From assembly GCF_056712565.1 (NCBI RefSeq), contig NZ_CM160072.1: a DNA stretch of 64,000 nt; one strand, 5' to 3'. Under the pieces are notes generated by a model. That model was not told where the DNA came from. It saw only the letters and a program-made list of their open reading frames with translations, and made no database searches. The stretch's first letter is position 1. Every line of letters starts with the position of its first letter. Positions 4,518 to 43,805 of the stretch are shown in pieces. A program made the position numbers and the translations under genes.

Positions 4518-5933
4518 ATGACAGATCTTCCCGACAGCACCCGCTGGCAATTGTGGATTGTGGCTTTCGGCTTCTTTATGCAGTCGCTGGACACCACCAT
4601 CGTTAACACCGCGCTTCCCTCAATGGCGCAAAGCCTCGGGGAAAGTCCGTTGCATATGCACATGGTCATTGTCTCTTATGTACTGACCGTGGCGGTGATG
4701 CTGCCCGCCAGCGGCTGGCTGGCGGACAAAGTCGGCGTGCGCAATATTTTCTTTACCGCCATCGTGCTGTTTACTCTCGGTTCACTGTTTTGCGCGCTTT
4801 CCGGCACGCTGAACGAACTGTTGCTGGCACGCGCGCTACAGGGCGTTGGCGGCGCGATGATGGTGCCGGTCGGCAGGTTGACGGTGATGAAAATCGTACC
4901 ACGCGAGCAATATATGGCGGCGATGACCTTTGTCACGCTGCCCGGTCAGGTCGGGCCGCTGCTTGGCCCGGCGCTCGGAGGTCTGCTGGTGGAGTACGCA
5001 TCGTGGCACTGGATCTTTTTGATCAACATTCCGGTGGGGATTATTGGCGCGATCGCCACACTGATGTTAATGCCGAACTACACCATGCAGACGCGGCGCT
5101 TTGATCTCTCCGGCTTTCTGTTGCTGGCGGTTGGCATGGCAGTCTTAACCCTGGCGCTGGACGGCAGTAAAGGTACAGGTTTCTCGCCGCTGGCGATTGC
5201 TGGCCTGGTCGCAGTTGGCGTGGTAGCACTGGTGCTTTATCTGCTGCACGCCCAAAATAACAACCGCGCCCTGTTCAGTCTGAAACTGTTCCGCACTCGT
5301 ACCTTTTCGCTGGGCCTGGCGGGGAGCTTTGCCGGACGTATTGGCAGTGGCATGTTGCCCTTTATGACACCGGTTTTCCTGCAAATTGGTCTCGGTTTCT
5401 CGCCGTTTCATGCCGGACTGATGATGATCCCGATGGTACTCGGCAGCATGGGAATGAAGCGAATTGTGGTACAGGTAGTGAATCGCTTTGGTTATCGTCG
5501 GGTACTGGTGGCGACCACGCTGGGCCTGTCGCTGGTCACCCTGTTGTTTATGACTACCGCTCTGCTGGGCTGGTACTACGTTTTGCCGTTCGTCCTGTTT
5601 TTACAAGGAATGGTCAACTCGACGCGTTTCTCCTCCATGAACACCCTGACGCTGAAAGATCTCCCGGACAACCTGGCGAGCAGCGGCAACAGTCTGCTGT
5701 CGATGATTATGCAATTGTCGATGAGTATTGGCGTCACCATCGCCGGGCTGTTGCTGGGACTTTTTGGTTCGCAGCATGTCAGCGTCGACAGCGGCACCAC
5801 ACAAACCGTCTTTATGTACACCTGGCTTAGCATGGCGTTTATCATCGCCCTTCCGGCGTTTGTCTTTGCCAGAGTGCCGAGCGATACGCATCAAAATGTG
5901 GCTATTTCACGGCGAAAAAGGAGCGCGCAATGA
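4518..5933 (+). CDS. mdtD: MFS transporter MdtD
   Basis: 471-aa polytopic membrane ORF immediately after mdtC (TAA-ATG junction). Confidence 0.9.
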
Positions 5934-20406: not shown

Positions 20407-20925
20407 TCACAGGCCGATATTGCGGCGGTGTTGCTCCAGCCGGTCGACGCCGTTCACCTTCTCAATCATGTTGATGGTGTCGATTTCGACCAGCTCCTTA
20501 CCGTCCATCGTCAGCCGGAAATAGGTGCAGACCACGGAGATTTTCGACTCGGTGTCTTCTCCCTGTTTGCCCTCGCCGGTGTCGATTTCTTTCTGACGTC
20601 CACGCATGACCACCTCGACGGCCACCGTTTCGCCGGTATCGTCGCGCTGGTAAGAGCCTGCAAAACGAATCGGTACGGAATCCACACCGGTTGCGGCGTA
20701 AAGCTCCCAGATAACCGAATCCGGGAAGCCACCGAGCGACCACTCCATTGACAGCGCATCGTCATCAAGGCCGAGGTCTACCGGTGCGCTGCCGTTCATC
20801 CCCGCACCGCGATAGTTTTCGAGCTTACGGGTCAGTTTTGGTAGCGTGACGGACTTCGCGACGCCCTGATAGCTGTAGCCGTTCAGAAAGACGTTCATTA
20901 ACTTGAGTTTGCGCGGCATTGCCAT
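20407..20925 (-). CDS. FII: Tail tube protein FII
   Basis: 172 aa, P2 gpFII. Confidence 0.88.
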   Translation of the reverse strand: MAMPRKLKLMNVFLNGYSYQGVAKSVTLPKLTRKLENYRGAGMNGSAPVDLGLDDDALSMEWSLGGFPDSVIWELYAATGVDSVPIRFAGSYQRDDTGETVAVEVVMRGRQKEIDTGEGKQGEDTESKISVVCTYFRLTMDGKELVEIDTINMIEKVNGVDRLEQHRRNIGL

Positions 20926-22130
20926 CGGTCAGGCTCCTTATAATTGCTGTTAACCGAGGTGACCAGATTTGCCAGGTATTTATCGGTAATACGCTGGCGC
21001 AGGGTCAGGTTTTCAAGAGGAGGCACCGGTGTATAGTCGTAGTCGATATACAGTTTTCCGGCCTTGAGGGTTTCCGCATCGTTGGATTCTTCGCTGAACC
21101 AGCAGGTCGCATCCACGATATAGCCGTTTGTTTTCAGCTCACGGAATTTGGCATTGATGCCGTCAACGATGTCGCGAATCAGCGTTGCGGTGATGGGCTT
21201 GTCCACCGCCCACATGTGCGCCTCAGCCATCGTGTCAGCCAGTACCTGCGCGGTGCGGGTGTAGTTTTCAAAGAGGAACAGCGGGTCATCAGAGCAGGTA
21301 CGGTTACCCCAGAATCGGAAACCGTCGCGGCGAATCAGCGTAGTGACGCCTGACTCGTTAAGCAGGTCAGCATCGGTGCCGGACTCCTGCAAATCCCAGA
21401 ATACAGATGCGCTGATGCCGGTAACACCGTTTACCCCGACGTTGGACAGCGTTTTATGCCAGCCCTGCTCCTGGTCGATTTTAGCGCGCAGACCCAGCGC
21501 ACGGGCGGTGGCATACGCGGTAGCGGTGGTACTGGTGACCGTATCCCATGCGAGGAAATCCGGCCAGATGACCATCAGCTCACGCTGGCTGAAATTCTGG
21601 CGGTAGGCTTTCACCTCGGAAATGGTCTTACAGCCCCATGCGCTGATATATCCGAAAGCGCGCAGCTTCTGACAGACGGATGCCAGTGCAACAGCCACCT
21701 CTTTGGTATCCAGTCCCGGCACACCGAGAATACGCGGTTTAACACCGGTTACCGACTCCGCCGCCAGCAGGGCTTTTAGTCCGGTGTACTGACCGTTTTC
21801 GTCGGTGGTGCCGATGATATTGGAAACGGTCTGCGCGAGTTTCGTTTCCTCGTCATCACCGGTGCAGTCTTCCACGCGCACGACAACGGTGACCGGTTTT
21901 GACTGGTCAGCGATGGCCTGCAACGATGCCGCCAGCGTGCCTTTTTTACCGGCCTTTGCAATTGCGCTTTGCACATTGGTAATCAGCACCGGTTTATTGA
22001 GGGGGAAGGTTTCCGCATCCGCATCGCTGGCCGTGCAGACCATGCCGACAATGGCAGTGGATACGGTGGAAATGACGCGGGTGCCGTCGTTAATCTCCAG
22101 CACCTGCACGCCATGATGATAGTCACTCAT
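20898..22130 (-). CDS. FI: Contractile tail sheath protein FI
   Basis: 410 aa starting MSDYHHGVQVLEINDGTRV. Confidence 0.88.
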   Translation of the reverse strand: MSDYHHGVQVLEINDGTRVISTVSTAIVGMVCTASDADAETFPLNKPVLITNVQSAIAKAGKKGTLAASLQAIADQSKPVTVVVRVEDCTGDDEETKLAQTVSNIIGTTDENGQYTGLKALLAAESVTGVKPRILGVPGLDTKEVAVALASVCQKLRAFGYISAWGCKTISEVKAYRQNFSQRELMVIWPDFLAWDTVTSTTATAYATARALGLRAKIDQEQGWHKTLSNVGVNGVTGISASVFWDLQESGTDADLLNESGVTTLIRRDGFRFWGNRTCSDDPLFLFENYTRTAQVLADTMAEAHMWAVDKPITATLIRDIVDGINAKFRELKTNGYIVDATCWFSEESNDAETLKAGKLYIDYDYTPVPPLENLTLRQRITDKYLANLVTSVNSNYKEPDRWQCRANSS

Positions 22131-22222
22131 CCGTTTAACTCCGTGGTTAATGGGTACAACTATTTTCTGTTGTGCAGAGCATAAGACGCTATTTGACCTG
22201 GCTGGTCAGTGGATGAAACAAC

Positions 22223-22253
22223 AGATAAAGAAAAGGCGGGCAATTCGCCCGCC
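22223..22253 (-). terminator. Rho-independent terminator between cargo region and the FI operon
   Basis: 7-bp GC stem ggcgggc/gcccgcc with a T-run on the minus strand (complement of agataaagaaaa). Confidence 0.5.
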
Positions 22254-22460
22254 TGTCCTGATTTGTACTCACTCATTTTCCGCCTGACAATTTACATAGC
22301 CCAAATGCTATCAAACCTGACAGTCTGCTTTGAGCGAAAAGTGGACATTAGAGTTACAAAAGCAAGTTTAAATCATCCAAAATATTACAATGTCCTTATC
22401 TATCTGATATCGTTATGATAAAAAGCTCCTGAATATAATCGATAGTAGGTGGTTATTTCC

Positions 22461-22838
22461 ATGAAATCAATTTTAGAGGTCTTTACTCAAGGAAATACTA
22501 AAGAAAAACTGGCTGTTATCGCCGATCTCACAACCATTGCGGGAATATCGATTGCAACTATTATTGCTGGTTTGTTAACCCTAGTTGCAAAAACAGATAA
22601 ACTAGATGTTGGAAATCTGTTTGGAGTTGTCATAATATCTCTGCTCGGATTGGCTGGTGTTTGCTGTTTTGTGGCCTTATTTATTTGGGTTATAACCCAA
22701 ATGTCTAAACCATGGGGAACACCTCGGGGGGTTCAGCCCTTAGTTAAGTGTGCTATTTCCCTTATCTTTATCTGTATGTTTTTGCTGGCTGTCTTTACAT
22801 TTTATGAGTTTATTTCTTCGATGAGCATACGCTATTGA
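22461..22838 (+). CDS. Small hydrophobic membrane protein (3 predicted TM helices), prophage cargo
   Basis: ORF 22449..22838; likely start ATG 22461 (MKSILEVF) with AGGTGG RBS; AT-rich. Confidence 0.6.
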   Translation: MKSILEVFTQGNTKEKLAVIADLTTIAGISIATIIAGLLTLVAKTDKLDVGNLFGVVIISLLGLAGVCCFVALFIWVITQMSKPWGTPRGVQPLVKCAISLIFICMFLLAVFTFYEFISSMSIRY

Positions 22839-22860
22839 ATATAAAATCAGCCCCCATAAC

Positions 22861-23445
22861 TTAAAAGAGACCTTCTATATCGACTTCAATGCCCAAATAA
22901 CGGACTGTGCTTTCCAGTTTCTTATGGCCCAACAGAAGTTGGATCACCCGGAGACTCTTGGTTTTCTTGTAGATTAAGTAAGGTTTTGTTCTTCTCATGG
23001 AATGTGTGCTGTACAGCGAATCTTCGAGACCAAGCTTTTCTACCCACCCATGAAAAATTCGGTTGTATTGCCGGGTTGATATATGGTGGTTAGTTCCGAC
23101 CCGAGAGCGGAACAGGAAGCCTTTACTATGCCAGTTGCCGAGCTTTATCAATGCAGTAACCGCTTCCCTTGTCCCTTTGGTTATCTCAAATTGGACAGGG
23201 CTGCCGGTTTTCTGTTGCAACACCGTTGCTCTGCTTGAGACAGAACTGCCATATGCAGCATCTGATACTTTGAGTTTGACCAAATCACAGCCCCGTAGCT
23301 TAGTGTCCAAAGCCATGTTGAACAGAGCTAGATCGCGTGTTTTACCTTCCAACTCAAGTCTAATCCGGATCCCCCAGATATGAAATATCTGAAGTGGCCT
23401 TTTTTGACCGATGGTACGGTCTTTATTCCACGGTGACGTTTTCAT
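22861..23445 (-). CDS. Small tyrosine recombinase (phage-integrase family, FimB/FimE-sized)
   Basis: C-terminal catalytic signature HSMRRT...LLGHKKLESTVRYL (R, H-x-x-R, Y); likely start ATG 23445 with AGGAGA RBS giving 194 aa. Confidence 0.7.
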   Translation of the reverse strand: MKTSPWNKDRTIGQKRPLQIFHIWGIRIRLELEGKTRDLALFNMALDTKLRGCDLVKLKVSDAAYGSSVSSRATVLQQKTGSPVQFEITKGTREAVTALIKLGNWHSKGFLFRSRVGTNHHISTRQYNRIFHGWVEKLGLEDSLYSTHSMRRTKPYLIYKKTKSLRVIQLLLGHKKLESTVRYLGIEVDIEGLF

Positions 23446-24275
23446 ATTCAAATCTCCTGCAATGTGGGAGATTTGAGTATGGTTGTCTCTCAAGAGCGAA
23501 AATAAGTCAACTATCACTAGTTGTTGCGCATGTACGTATTCTGTCAATTAATTATTGACAATCATCAATTCTGGAATGATCAAAATCATCATATCGAATT
23601 ATAGTCTGGTTGACTGTATCTATTGTTGGTGTCATTTCTGTTATAATATCCTGATAACCTAAAGAGTTAAATACATTTACTAAGGCCTCACACCGAAGGG
23701 CCGTAGCAATTACAAAATTATAAATTGCCAGCCGTTTATTTTCTTGTTTAACTGCAAGAATGAATTCGATAGCAGTATTTTCATCACTTTGGATTGCATT
23801 ATATAGAGATACTATATTTACCATATCATCAGAGAATGTATGTATTGAATCACAAAGGGGAACGTAATGGGCATGATAGTGTGTTTCCCAGCCAATTAAT
23901 TCAAAAAGTCTTCTGGTTCCTGGATATTCAGGTGTATTTGGCCACAATCTATTAAATAGATCAGTTAGTTCTTTTCCCATGCGAATCCTTTCATTTGCTG
24001 CTGGATTAGTCATTCCTTTGGATTTTAAACACTCCAGCCACCGTTTTCCATTACTATGAACTAATTTCTTACTAGCCTTGAGTAATGCTTGTGCATTTTC
24101 GCCATCATCTATTGCTATATAAAATTGATTGGCAGCCTGTTCTATTATAACCCTAGCTAATACTTCCGATGCTGAAAAGGCTCCTATATTCAAAGAAGAG
24201 ATAGCCTGATTACTAAGTTCATTCAGTACATTAAAGTACTGTAAGACCATCAATTTTTGTTCCACACCCTTTAGG

Positions 24276-24280
24276 TTGTC
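24276..24280. repeat. IS2 target-site duplication, TTGTC (copy 1)
   Basis: 5 bp immediately flanking the IS2 terminus, identical to 25612..25616. Confidence 0.85.
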
Positions 24281-24291
24281 TGGATTTGCCC

Positions 24292-25197
24292 CTATATTTC
24301 CAGACACCTGTTATCACTTAACCCATTACTGGCTTGCTGCCGTAGATATTCCCGTGGCGAGCGATAACCCAGTGCACTATGCGGATGCCATTCGTTATAA
24401 TGCTCGAACGCCTCTGCAAGGTTCTTTGCTGCCGTTAACCCGTCTGGTTTGGGCATGACACTGATGTAGTCACGCTTTATCGTTTTCACGAAGCTCTCTG
24501 CTATGCCGTTACTCTCCGGACTCCGCACCGCCGTGCTCTTCGGTTCAAGCCCCAACATCCGGGCAAACTGCCGTGTTTCATTAGCCCGGTAGCATGAACC
24601 ATTATCCGTCAGCCACTCTACTGGAGACGCCGGAAGCTCGTTGCCGAAGCGGCGTTCCACCGCTCCCAGCATGACGTCCTGTACTGTTTCACTGTTGAAG
24701 CCGCCCGTAGTGACCGCCCAGTGCAGTGCCTCACGGTCACAGCAGTCCAGCGCGAACGTGACTCGCAGTTTTTCTCCGTTATCACAGCGGAACTCGAACC
24801 CGTCAGAGCACCATCGCTGATTACTTTCTTTCACAGCCACTCTGCCTGTATGTGCCCGTTTCGATGGCGGTACAGCAGGTTTTCGCTCAAGCAACAGCGC
24901 ATTCTGGCGCATGATCCGGTAAACACGTTTGGCATTGATCGCAGGCATACCATCAAGTTCTGCCTGTCTGCGAAGCAGCGCCCATACCCGACGATAACCA
25001 TACGTGGGCAGCTCTCCGATAACATGGTGTATACGGAGAAGCACATCCGTATCATCAGTGTGACGACTGCGGCGGCCATCCATCCAGTCATCGGTTCGTC
25101 TGAGAATGACGTGCAACTGCGCACGCGACACCCGGAGACAACGGCTGACTAAGCTTACTCCCCATCCCCGGGCAATAAGGGCGCGTGCGCTATCCAC
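24292..25197 (-). CDS. insD: IS2 transposase InsD (orfB, DDE domain)
   Basis: 301-aa ORF inside IS2. Confidence 0.9.
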
Positions 25198-25520
25198 TTT
25201 TTTGCCCGTCCATATTCAACGGCTTCTTTGAGGAGTTCATTTTCCATCGTTTTCTTGCCGAGCAGGCGCTGGAGTTCTTTAATCTGCTTCATGGCGGCAG
25301 CAAGTTCAGAGGCAGGAACAACCTGTTCTCCGGCGGCGACAGCAGTAAGACTTCCTTCCTGGTATTGCTTACGCCAGAGAAATAACTGGCTGGCTGCTAC
25401 ACCATGTTGCCGGGCAACGAGGGAGACCGTCATCCCTGGTTCAAAGCTCTGCTGAACAATTGCGATCTTTTCCTGTGTGGTACGCCGTCTGCGTTTCTCC
25501 GGTCCTAAGACATCAATCAT
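25155..25520 (-). CDS. insC: IS2 InsC (orfA, HTH)
   Basis: 121-aa product [41 protein letters not shown]...; overlaps insD in -1 frame. Confidence 0.9.
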
Positions 25521-25611
25521 CTGCTCTCCAATGACTAGTCTAAAAACTAGTATTAAGACTATCACTTAAATAAGTGATATTGGTTGTCTGGAGATTCAGG
25601 GGGCCAGTCTA

Positions 25612-25616
25612 TTGTC
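25612..25616. repeat. IS2 target-site duplication, TTGTC (copy 2)
   Basis: 5 bp immediately flanking the other IS2 terminus. Confidence 0.85.
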
Positions 25617-25768
25617 TATTTTATTTTTATGCTCCTCAAATTTTGCATGGATATATTTATTTATCGCGGCTATTTTTTTTACATCTTCGTCAAGATCAAA
25701 CGGGCAACGTCCAAACAATTCTTTTTTCATATATTTCTCCTGTTGTACAAGCTTCCATAAGTTGGCAG

Positions 25769-25794
25769 ATTATACACTGAAGATTACCTATAAA
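25769..25794 (-). promoter_or_regulatory. Candidate sigma70 promoter for the IS2-disrupted cargo gene
   Basis: Minus-strand TATAAT (25769..25774) with TTTATA upstream (25789..25794); spacing about 14 bp, so tentative. Confidence 0.35.
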
Positions 25795-26151
25795 TAGCTG
25801 TGCGGGATAGCAGATCAGTGCAAGAAGTACAACCAAGTGAACTGTGCGTATTCAGATACCTGGCCTAACGTTCGCGATAGCCGTCCCCTGCACGAAGCCA
25901 TATATTAGATGTATTAGCTCAGACCTTATCTGACAGGTTGAGTAGGTAGAATCTAATCAAAGCTGACAGTCTGGTTTGGACTGTGAGTTCAACCGATGGA
26001 TGCAACACACAGCGATCTACGGACATTACTAGCATAGCTGTGTATTAATCATCGGGAAGCAGGTCAGTCCGCTCCTAGCACAGAGCAGACTGTCAGATTA
26101 GGCTTTACTCTGTGCTATAGATACGTTAGCTCACTCCAGAGATCATACAAC

Positions 26152-26679
26152 TTATTGCGGCATTTCCGGCCATTCAGGATTTGCAGGATCCACACGGCTG
26201 ACCAGAACACTGTAGCGTTCCCATGCTTCCAGTCGGCTACGCTCCTCATCTGTTGCCATATTCAGTCTGACAGAGCGTTCCAGTGGCTGAATGATAGTTT
26301 CAGCTTCGGAAAGCAAAGCTGACTTCTGTAATTCCGCCAGTTGCAGCTGTTCGTCTGCCGTATAAATCCGCTTAATCACGGCACCATCCTTAAACATCCA
26401 TTTACCTGAGTCATCAGCACGTCGGTTGGCGGTAATATCAGGAACCTCGACAACGCTAAAACCTTCAGGGTTGAGCGTTGAAGCATCTCTGGTGATGCCG
26501 ACAATTATATTATTCTCATCGTAAACAATCTTTATCGTGTCTTCCTGAAAATTACTTACTTCCTCATACCAGTTTTTTCCCTCTTCGGACCATAACCAGA
26601 TAACATCAAAATTTTTTGTCAGTTGATATTGGGCAACAGTTTTTGGATTACCCGCAGTAATATTTTTTAAATGCTGCAT
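26152..26679 (-). CDS. G: Tail fiber assembly protein G
   Basis: 175 aa immediately downstream of tail fiber gene H. Confidence 0.85.
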
Positions 26680-41588: not shown

Positions 41589-43805
41589 ATGGAACTTAGA
41601 TTAAAAAATGTTACCAGTTATAAGAAAGACGCCTTCACAATACTGAATCTTGAAAAAAGAGTAAACATACTATACGGCCAAAATGGTTGTGGCAAATCTA
41701 CCATTTCAAATTATTTCTACGACTCTACACACACAGATTATAACGAGTGTGAATGTACCCTTCTTGACAATTACAAACCTCTTGTTTACAACACTAAATT
41801 TATTGAAGATAACTTCTATAATGCACAGGAACAAAAAGGTGTTTTTACATTAAGTAAAGAAAATGCAGATATTGAAAAACAATTAATTGAAAAAGAAGCA
41901 ATTAAACAGCAACTCACAGAGCAATATAGACAAAAAAAAGGAGTGTTATTGAAATTAGAAGCAGAAATGGAAAAAAAAGAAAATGAATACATCGAATCGA
42001 TCTGGAAAAAAACAGAACCAATCAGAAACTCTGTACTAAAAACCTTAATGAAAGGTAAAGTTGGCTATAAAAGACCTTTTTTTGAGATGATAAAATCATC
42101 CTCACCAATCACCTTTATTAATTTAAATGATATAGCAAAAGAATACTCTATACTATTAGAAAATAGAAACAATGAAACCGCATTAATAACTCCTTTACAT
42201 CCATATACCCCATCAATTGATGATGTAAATACATTAGCAACACCTATAATAGATACAAGCAATAGCTATTTATCAGAAACCATTAATAAACTTCATAATC
42301 TTGACTGGGTAAAAAAAGGTAAAGAACATTATTTAGACGGTTCTACATGTCCGTTTTGTCAGGAAAAAACTATTAGTCACGAATTTTTAAATGCCCTTAA
42401 ATCAATATTTGACGAAAGTTATTCAAAGAAAGTAAAACAGCTCTCAGATATAAAGTCAGTTTATGAGAAAAATACCATATATCATTTTAACGAAATACAA
42501 AACAATATATCATCATGTGCACTAATCAATGAGAAAGATAAAGAGAACATTATTTCCAATATTAAAATATTGCAAAACATTGCAGAAAAAAATTTAATAA
42601 ACATTATTGATAAGATCAACAATCCATCAACATGCGTTACATTAGAAATTGATAAAGAACTAGAAAATCATGTTCAGGAAAGCATAGGCGCTGTTAACAA
42701 GAAAATAAGAGACATAAATGATAAGGTTAAAAAACTCAAAGAGTATGAGAATAAAATCGGAAAACAAGTTTGGGGGGCTCTCCATGCTTTTTGCAGCGAT
42801 GATTTAGAGAATTTATCCAAACACAAAGAAAAATTCTTTGATATCAAAAAGAAAGTTCATGATGAATTAAATAATATTGAGCAACAAGGAAAAGAAAATA
42901 ATCTCACAATAAAAGCATTGCGAGATAAAATATCTAACATTGATTCTACGATAGACTCAATAAACACCCATTTAAAAAATCTAGGGATCTCTGGTTTTTG
43001 TATTGAAAAACATGCAGAAAGAAAAGATATGTACATTATATCTCGACCAGGGCATACAAAAAACCAAAATGTTTATAGATCTCTTAGCGAAGGTGAAAAA
43101 ACACTAATAACGTTTCTTTATTTTTTAGAGTGCTGTAAAGGTAAAACCGATAAAAATGATACCGATAGCAGGGATATTTTTATTGTTATTGACGATCCAA
43201 TATCTAGTCTATCGCAAAACTATGTCTACGACATCGCATCAATTATTCATCACCACATTATAAAAAATGAATTAACAAAGAAGGTATTAATCCTTACTCA
43301 CAATCTTTATTTCTTTCATGAACTTATTAAGCTATCTCCTAAAAGCAGAGAAGACAAACTATTTAAGAAAAACTATTATCTAGGTAGAGTAACGAAAAAT
43401 GATTTTAGTATAATTACTGAAATACAAAAAAACAGCATACAGAATGAATATCAATCTTTGTGGCAAATATTAAAAGATGCAAAAGATGGCAAAGCAAACA
43501 AAATCATAATACCGAATATTATGAGAAACATACTAGAATATTATTTTGCATTTGTTCATAGAACAGATGCTCTACAAGATGAATTAACAAAGTTGGCACG
43601 CGACGATAGCAACAGTGATTTCAAAGCATTCTACAGATACATTAACAGAGGTTCTCACTCTGATGCGGTAAATATTACTGATATGGGCGACATAGACCCA
43701 GATAAATACCTAAAACAATTGAGAACAATATTTTCAGCTACTGGTGACGAAATGCATTATTTAAAAATGATGGACGAACTAGAAGAGGAAAACGTTACCG
43801 CTTAG
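41589..43805 (+). CDS. SMC/ABC-type P-loop ATPase with CxxC and C-terminal R-x3-E...H tail; RloC/PrrC-like anticodon-nuclease candidate (prophage cargo, tin/old position)
   Basis: Walker A GQNGCGKST near N-terminus; CPFC about aa 253; Walker B IFIVIDDP and LILTHN H-loop about aa 525-560; C-terminal RNILE...H; strongly AT-rich. Confidence 0.7.
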   Translation: MELRLKNVTSYKKDAFTILNLEKRVNILYGQNGCGKSTISNYFYDSTHTDYNECECTLLDNYKPLVYNTKFIEDNFYNAQEQKGVFTLSKENADIEKQLIEKEAIKQQLTEQYRQKKGVLLKLEAEMEKKENEYIESIWKKTEPIRNSVLKTLMKGKVGYKRPFFEMIKSSSPITFINLNDIAKEYSILLENRNNETALITPLHPYTPSIDDVNTLATPIIDTSNSYLSETINKLHNLDWVKKGKEHYLDGSTCPFCQEKTISHEFLNALKSIFDESYSKKVKQLSDIKSVYEKNTIYHFNEIQNNISSCALINEKDKENIISNIKILQNIAEKNLINIIDKINNPSTCVTLEIDKELENHVQESIGAVNKKIRDINDKVKKLKEYENKIGKQVWGALHAFCSDDLENLSKHKEKFFDIKKKVHDELNNIEQQGKENNLTIKALRDKISNIDSTIDSINTHLKNLGISGFCIEKHAERKDMYIISRPGHTKNQNVYRSLSEGEKTLITFLYFLECCKGKTDKNDTDSRDIFIVIDDPISSLSQNYVYDIASIIHHHIIKNELTKKVLILTHNLYFFHELIKLSPKSREDKLFKKNYYLGRVTKNDFSIITEIQKNSIQNEYQSLWQILKDAKDGKANKIIIPNIMRNILEYYFAFVHRTDALQDELTKLARDDSNSDFKAFYRYINRGSHSDAVNITDMGDIDPDKYLKQLRTIFSATGDEMHYLKMMDELEEENVTA

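Follow-up and report, generated by a model that had tools for sequence, protein, structure and literature searches.

A complete IS2 element has jumped into codon 39/40 of an 843-bp gene for a DUF5677 domain-containing protein, carried in a cassette of a P2-like prophage, and has duplicated the target pentamer TTGTC. The resulting allele would be null, and the event looks recent and private to the strain or to a narrow lineage; a probability of about 0.96 is attached to this reading as a whole. All coordinates refer to the window, that is, the whole stretch of 64,000 nucleotides of contig NZ_CM160072.1 (assembly GCF_056712565.1) that was analyzed.

Location of the Disrupted Gene in the Prophage

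The P2-like prophage lies between yegQ and yegR, at ∼15.5–49.9 kb of the window, in an E. coli chromosome. Homology to P2-type backbones carrying other cargo, such as P2-EC46, stops at 22337 and 26067, and these two points coincide with the features named 'right' and 'left inverted repeat' in AJ512680 (Nilsson et al.). By gene order, the segment between them has gene G, for tail-fibre assembly, on one side and the tail-sheath gene FI on the other, and it contains three cargo genes, namely the DUF5677 gene, which is the first, a short tyrosine recombinase gene and a gene for a hypothetical protein of 125 aa. The disrupted gene had been described as cargo in the preliminary description, which agrees with its place in the variable part of the P2 Z/fun locus, flanked by the conserved inverted repeats.

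22338..26066, no strand: variable (cargo) segment, P2 Z/fun hotspot; backbone homology ends at both points
22314..22346 and 26067..26099: conserved inverted repeats with CTGACAGTCTG core, borders of the cargo segment
22861..23445, minus strand: second gene of the cassette, lying downstream of the DUF5677 gene; short tyrosine recombinase with only the catalytic domain, 194 aa by the RefSeq start
22461..22838, plus strand: third cargo gene, hypothetical protein, 125 aa, phrog_4155 (ORF list, PHROG match)

The hydrophobic sequence of the 125-aa protein suggests that it is a membrane protein. An invertible promoter for the short recombinase was considered and rejected, as the long inverted repeat that flanks the cassette is the conserved P2 backbone repeat annotated in the AJ5126xx records. 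Elsewhere in the window, an apparent extra 196 bp in mdtD (5322..5517) was traced to a deletion in the comparator genome and is no peculiarity of the window.

A sister prophage is carried by the type strain ATCC 11775, and at its other hotspot (old/tin) ISEc12 has entered the PDC-S06-type ATPase gene, a gene that is intact in the window (41589..43805). All core genes are untouched in both the window prophage and the ATCC 11775 sister prophage.

The IS2 Element

The segment from 24281 to 25611 comprises 1331 bases and, from its sequence, is a complete IS2 of the IS3 family on the minus strand. The InsC and InsD frames from which this identity had been proposed are borne out by both protein models and DNA identity. 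OrfA matches the NCBIfam model 'IS2 repressor TnpA' over positions 1–121 of 121 with 276 bits (cut-off 229), and OrfB matches 'IS2 transposase TnpB' over positions 1–301 of 301 with 713 bits (cut-off 597). At the DNA level the element is identical at 1330 of 1331 positions (99.9%) to the annotated, K-12-derived IS2 (InsC/InsD) in phage PhiR11_1 (PV340547), and it shares 97.7% identity with the IS2 of Shigella phage SfX (U82084). The copies in PhiR11_1 and SfX have the same terminal bases, with 5-bp duplications of GTTTC and CAGGC.

24281..25611, minus strand: complete IS2 (IS3 family); NCBIfam TnpA and TnpB at full length
24281..24321, minus strand: IRR, 41 bp, TGGATTTGCCCC... on the plus strand (alignment of the two ends; length from PMC3299598)
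25570..25611, minus strand: IRL, 42 bp, TAGACTGGCCCCC... on the minus strand (alignment of the two ends; length from PMC3299598)
25155..25520, minus strand: orfA (InsC), 121 aa from the canonical ATG; residues 16–136 of the listed ORF match IS2 TnpA 1–121/121
24292..25197, minus strand: orfB (InsD), 301 aa, catalytic part of the OrfAB transposase
25197..25203, minus strand: A6G slippery site, AAAAAAG (from the sequence; role from PMC3299598)

On the plus strand the segment starts with TGGATTTGCCCC and ends with GGGGGCCAGTCTA, so that the terminus on the IRR side (24281) reads TGGATTTGCCCC... and that on the IRL side (25611), as the reverse complement, reads TAGACTGGCCCCC.... When aligned, the two ends form imperfect inverted repeats that need a single 1-base gap, and the termini agree with the 41-bp IRR and 42-bp IRL of published IS2 (PMC3299598). 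Two overlapping minus-strand ORFs, orfA and orfB, fill the element, orfA being given in the ORF list in a longer, GTG-started form (25155..25565). The A6G site falls within their overlap, and in IS2 a −1 frameshift at such a site joins OrfA to OrfB (PMC3299598). This copy is full-length and apparently transposition-competent. A second copy of IS2, as would be found in a composite element or as a donor, was not detected in the 64-kb window.

Target Duplication and the Empty Site

The element is flanked directly by the pentamer TTGTC on both sides, as had been noted beforehand. The chance of finding the same 5-mer on both flanks is ∼1/1024, and what decides the matter is that the allele without IS2 carries TTGTC only once.

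24276..24280, no strand: target-site duplication, copy 1, TTGTC; single copy in the ATCC 11775 empty site
25612..25616, no strand: target-site duplication, copy 2, TTGTC

In the empty site the base that follows the pentamer (T) is the same as the first base of the IS, and the letters alone would also permit the repeat to be read as 6 bp and the element as 1330 bp; the boundary is fixed by the canonical ends of IS2, however, and the duplication is therefore 5 bp and the element 1331 bp. The sister prophage of ATCC 11775 is 99.97–99.99% identical to the window on both sides of IS2, and its two alignment blocks share nothing in the reference but TTGTC(T), which is the single-copy target.

Removal of the IS and of one TTGTC joins 25617..25730 to 23552..24280 and yields, as the preliminary description had predicted, one uninterrupted minus-strand ORF, 843 nt in length and encoding 280 aa, which reads ...HKNKIDNLKGVEQ... 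/ ...EEHKNKIDNLKGVEQKLMV... across the junction. The duplicated bases, GACAA in the direction of the gene, are codon 39 (Asp) and the first two bases of codon 40 (Asn). Alignment to IS-free homologues, which had been proposed as the check on this reconstruction, gave a single-piece match of 843/843 to the gene for WP_000711883.1, the product of the intact gene, with no differing junction or frame. Matches to the reconstructed ORF were found in 56 of 5,426 complete E. coli genomes, and in all 56 there is a place that covers at least 80% of the query. Among the 30 matches listed, 19 (including ATCC 11775) are identical over 843/843 nt in a single piece, and all 30 are annotated as 'DUF5677 domain-containing protein'; in each of the five complete genomes that were opened, the full 843-nt gene is annotated. 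The reconstructed protein also matches phrog_4167 from 1 to 280 of 280 positions (E 2e-202).

Gene Fragments and the Start Codon

25612..25730, minus strand: 5′ part of the split DUF5677 gene, running from Met1 to codon 40 (ORF list, reconstruction, genome match)
23552..24280, minus strand: 3′ part of the split DUF5677 gene, running from codons 39/40 to codon 280 and the stop (ORF list, reconstruction, Pfam)
25673..25680, minus strand: A8 homopolymer in the 5′ fragment, codons 17–19 (DVKKIA); A7, hence frameshifted, in several other assemblies, loci L015, L017, and L018 among them

The 5′ fragment reads on into IS2 and ends after RLAP, forming an ORF of 44 aa (25596..25730). The 3′ fragment of 240 codons is left with no start of its own, the 1331 bp of IS2 lying between it and the start codon. 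The ORF list offers in its place a 251-aa ORF (23552..24307) that begins at a GTG inside the right end of IS2, with no Shine-Dalgarno sequence before this GTG. As the GTG and first nine codons (24307..24281, MSGNIGANP) are IS sequence, this start is an artefact, which is how it had been regarded from the outset. Annotation pipelines will mis-call this 251-aa ORF, when the true gene encodes 280 aa and is here a pseudogene. Because only a 44-residue N-terminal stub and a 3′ fragment separated from its start codon are left, we infer that the allele is null, although read-through from IS2 could in principle give a truncated product, initiated at the GTG at 24307, which is in frame, or at Met49.

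This reading depends on the gene starting at Met1. Were the true start Met49, IS2 would instead lie in the 5′ leader or promoter region and would alter expression of the gene, and it is the case that a 232-aa product from Met49 is called in 19 contigs and that the AFDB has an entry from Shigella flexneri with 232 residues and 99% identity to the query. These shorter calls are, however, explained by a frameshift: a change from A8 to A7 in the homopolymer at codons 17–19 forces the 232-aa call, and A7 was found upstream in five of the six loci retrieved, of which L015, L017, and L018 are otherwise clean. The RefSeq annotation is 280 aa in length, as is the PHROG profile, which is matched end to end, and homologues at 38–54% identity align from residues 1–12 onward, with the conserved K35 and Q46 preceding Met49. 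In the AlphaFold model (mean pLDDT 94.9) the helix formed by residues 13–40 is modelled at pLDDT 97–98, and a strong AGGAG is located eight bases before Met1, with nothing comparable before Met49. Conservation of the N-terminus, the ribosome-binding site and the structure model all speak against a start at Met49, which was rejected as very improbable. Since the region before Met49 is coding, IS2 sits inside the coding sequence and not in a leader, and the earlier claim that the IS splits the gene holds.

Age, Rarity, and Proposed Mechanism of the Insertion

A 300-base query over the left junction was covered to at least 80% in 0 of 5,426 complete E. coli genomes, whilst 4,383 of these genomes match part of the query, at a median of 3 places. 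Neither the 44-aa nor the 251-aa fragment product is on record by exact look-up, and both halves of the gene are identical to intact alleles. With the IS intact, the duplication perfect, the gene halves the same as intact alleles and the junction absent elsewhere, the insertion looks recent, as had been supposed, and private to the strain or a narrow lineage. A single assembly stands behind the window, and the insertion may have arisen during laboratory culture.

The rarity of the junction also bears on whether IS2 was placed here by the assembly, as a repeat that was collapsed or put into the prophage by mistake. Most E. coli carry several copies of IS2, as the number of genomes with partial matches indicates, and the junction is absent from every other genome searched. 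Misassembly would not, however, yield a perfect 5-bp duplication of bases that are single in the empty site, and both ends of the IS2 are complete to the last base, unlike what is expected of a misassembly. An artefact is accordingly considered exceedingly improbable, and a true transposition event is preferred.

Such an event would follow the pathway published for IS2, which proceeds through a figure-of-eight and a minicircle intermediate by copy-out/paste-in (PMC3299598). A donor copy elsewhere in the genome would give rise to the minicircle, which would insert itself at TTGTC through cuts staggered by 5 bp, whose repair would leave the pentamer duplicated. IS2 has the same orientation as the DUF5677 gene, so transcription from a cargo promoter would run into IRL and orfA. 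The element may be polar on the recombinase gene, which is 106 bp downstream of the DUF5677 stop codon; a promoter and terminator scan of 22100..26300 returned counts at or below shuffle expectation and gave no signal on polarity.

The DUF5677 Protein

For the cargo protein Pfam gives DUF5677 (PF18928) only, with residues 50–194 aligned to positions 4–158 of the 166 in the model (independent E-value 2e-09). NCBIfam has no match for the protein, PADLOC-DB v2 no family at E ≤ 0.01 for it, the recombinase or the small hypothetical protein, and tblastn of the protein against 50,697 phage records found no match. A scan of 1.84 billion representatives returned 51 relatives at E ≤ 0.001, and R81, E85, Y173, and H185 are invariant across 47 aligned sequences. 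Searching PDB sequences with the 47-sequence profile returned noise only (E ≥ 0.3), and a Foldseek comparison with the PDB had no hit with E below 0.1.

Among known systems, the protein was compared with HEPN-superfamily Abi proteins (AbiV, AbiU2-like, LA2681-like, Apea-like HEPN), and its predicted fold appears to resemble the AbiV, AbiU2, and LA2681-type families. The Rx4-6H motif is, however, absent, as there is no Arg 4–6 residues before the invariant H185 (...PLCDSIH...) and no His 4–6 residues after the invariant R81 (RVIIEQAAN). For this reason the protein is called HEPN-like and is not filed as a HEPN nuclease. The more remote homologues are found within lambdoid prophages, as solitary genes of the accessory regions, and their neighbors include DUF4365, PRTase-CE/NADAR, AAA_15/AAA_21, and DNA methylase genes. 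A role in defence or abortive infection is at present no more than a reasonable guess. The only experiment found in the literature is one in which a DUF5677 ORF from a Bacillota genome was expressed in E. faecalis, where it was not among the ORFs reported to protect.

Selection or Neutral Decay

If a HEPN-like, possibly Abi-type gene is costly or toxic to its carrier, then the insertion may have been selected, with knock-outs by IS2 or in the homopolymer either favored or acting as an on/off switch. Consistent with this, a second, independent inactivating allele, with A7 in place of A8 at 25673..25680, is present in other assemblies that carry this type of prophage, as seen from the 232-aa calls and the A7 tracts described above, and in the sister prophage of ATCC 11775 ISEc12 interrupts a cargo gene at the other hotspot, with the core genes spared in both prophages. 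The apparent likeness of the fold to AbiV, AbiU2, and LA2681-type HEPN families points the same way. Nevertheless, the gene appears intact wherever it was checked in complete E. coli genomes, whether in the 56 matching genomes, among the listed matches that are 100% identical or in the five genomes opened, and a survey of P2/P4 elements reports that pseudogenes similar to defence genes are rare (10.64898/2026.02.27.708500). The gene is not known to have any toxicity or defence phenotype, the ORF tried in E. faecalis fell outside the protective set, and within a prophage only the accessory genes tolerate IS hits. Selection for the insertion is therefore regarded as improbable.

Taken together, the A7 allele and ISEc12 suggest that cargo genes of this prophage lineage have been hit repeatedly, which fits either the cargo being the only tolerated target or selection against costly genes. 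A further proposal, doubtful on present evidence, is that the three-gene cassette, with its tyrosine recombinase of FimB/E size and its bounding Z/fun inverted repeats, is a prophage-borne anti-phage or Abi module whose first gene is recurrently switched off, by IS2 and by A8/A7 slippage, because it is costly. Were this so, the locus would offer a natural knock-out and wild-type pair for testing the function of DUF5677. The prophage and its near-identical sisters in any case form a natural allelic series, in which the gene is intact, disrupted by IS2 or frameshifted at A7, and they run counter, in a small way, to the rarity reported for IS elements and for recognisable defence-gene pseudogenes in P2 hotspots (10.64898/2026.02.27.708500).

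Comparison With Known Systems

IS2 is among the best-studied insertion sequences, and disruption of a gene with a 5-bp duplication is textbook behavior for it. The element in the window has the same 1331 bp, termini, OrfA/OrfB arrangement with A6G and 5-bp duplication as the IS2 of E. coli K-12 (IS3 family, IS2 group), including an IRR and IRL that are one base apart in length. In structure the two are identical, and the insertion site alone is new, being absent from the 5,426 complete E. coli genomes.

Several other insertions likewise fall in non-structural prophage genes, each with a target gene and site different from the present ones. IS2 splits int of Shigella phage SfX (U82084), IS2 is also found in NleG-like effector genes of Stx2 phages with the core intact, and ISEc12 in the ATCC 11775 sister prophage also splits a non-structural gene and spares the core genes.

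The cassette occupies the same position between G and FI as the P2 Z/fun hotspot (Nilsson et al., 2004, AJ512676-83; iLund4u preprint, 10.1101/2024.10.15.618418). The inverted repeats of the window share 92–93% identity with those of the P2-EC46 Z/fun locus and have the same borders, but Z/fun is replaced by the DUF5677 gene, the recombinase gene and the gene for the small predicted membrane protein. The event is one of a known IS with known behavior in a known hotspot, and the family of the disrupted gene is already catalogued, so the value of the locus is modest and lies in a natural knock-out allele of a possible HEPN-like cargo gene, produced by a routine event.

Inactivation and transfer of the DUF5677 cargo gene

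The DUF5677 gene, the 280-aa cargo gene split by IS2 in the window, carries a homopolymer near its start:

25673..25680, minus strand: A8 run, codons 17-19 of the DUF5677 gene

In several other assemblies with the same prophage type (L015, L017, and L018), the run is A7 instead of A8, which shifts the DUF5677 reading frame, and because of this frameshift the gene is called as a 232-aa protein from Met49, a call found in 19 contigs. Assemblies L019 and L020 also have A7, but contain many further homopolymer errors and are therefore unreliable. The A7 frameshift is a second, independent route of inactivation of the same cargo gene, with the A7 allele possibly arising through slippage or phase variation.

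A variant of DUF5677 with 86% identity is present in a lambdoid prophage (L010, CP027587.1, 3483..8877; also loci L011-L013), where it adjoins an IS3-family element, a truncated integrase, and an AAA_15/AAA_21 ATPase pair. The DUF5677 gene passes between phage types, accompanied by DNA resembling the start of the recombinase gene. Most draft contigs with this variant end 260-350 bp upstream of the gene, and such a common breakpoint suggests a repeat (IS) at that position.

The start of the short tyrosine recombinase gene, the second cargo gene, is itself covered by a potential secondary structure:

23442..23482: hairpin of 19 pairs over the start of the short tyrosine recombinase gene

In the IS-free locus the hairpin has 15-nt arms with 93% complementarity, and it overlaps both a GGAG resembling a Shine-Dalgarno sequence and the start codon of the recombinase gene, ATG (23445). 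It could block translation initiation or serve as a protein-binding site.

Comparison with ATCC 11775 and its sister prophage

The second P2 hotspot, old/tin, which is flanked by the portal gene and gene A, is occupied in the window by an intact gene:

41589..43805, plus strand: 738-aa AAA ATPase gene, match to PADLOC PDC-S06

The match of this ATPase to the candidate system PDC-S06 has an E-value of 1e-254. The same gene is interrupted in the near-identical prophage of the type strain ATCC 11775 (L002, 3293..8096) by ISEc12, an IS21-family element of 2.58 kb. The two sister prophages therefore differ both in the IS they carry and in the cargo gene it has entered.

The two also differ in the tail-sheath gene:

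20898..22130, minus strand: tail-sheath ORF, altered stop codon at 20939..20940

Relative to ATCC 11775, a TA insertion at 20939..20940 changes the sheath stop TAA to TAT AAG. The sheath protein thereby gains length, with 410 aa instead of 396, and its reading frame runs through the region where the tail-tube gene starts. As three other assemblies (L015, L017, and L019) call this 410-aa form too, the allele is genuine and not due to faulty sequencing.

Approximately 196 bases of mdtD (window 5322..5517), lying between GCTGGGCCTG direct repeats, are absent from ATCC 11775; this was rejected as a feature of the window, being an in-frame deletion in the mdtD of ATCC 11775.

Inverted repeats of the Z/fun segment

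A motif centered on CTGACAGTCTG occurs five times in the window, where 0.63 matches would be expected, with three copies in or at the borders of the Z/fun cargo:

22314..22346: motif copy
25960..25987: motif copy
26067..26099: motif copy

The copy at 25960..25987 lies within the cargo, approximately 100 bp in, and may represent a leftover of an earlier cassette exchange. The other two are the conserved inverted repeats flanking the Z/fun variable segment, corresponding to the left and right inverted repeats annotated in record AJ512680.
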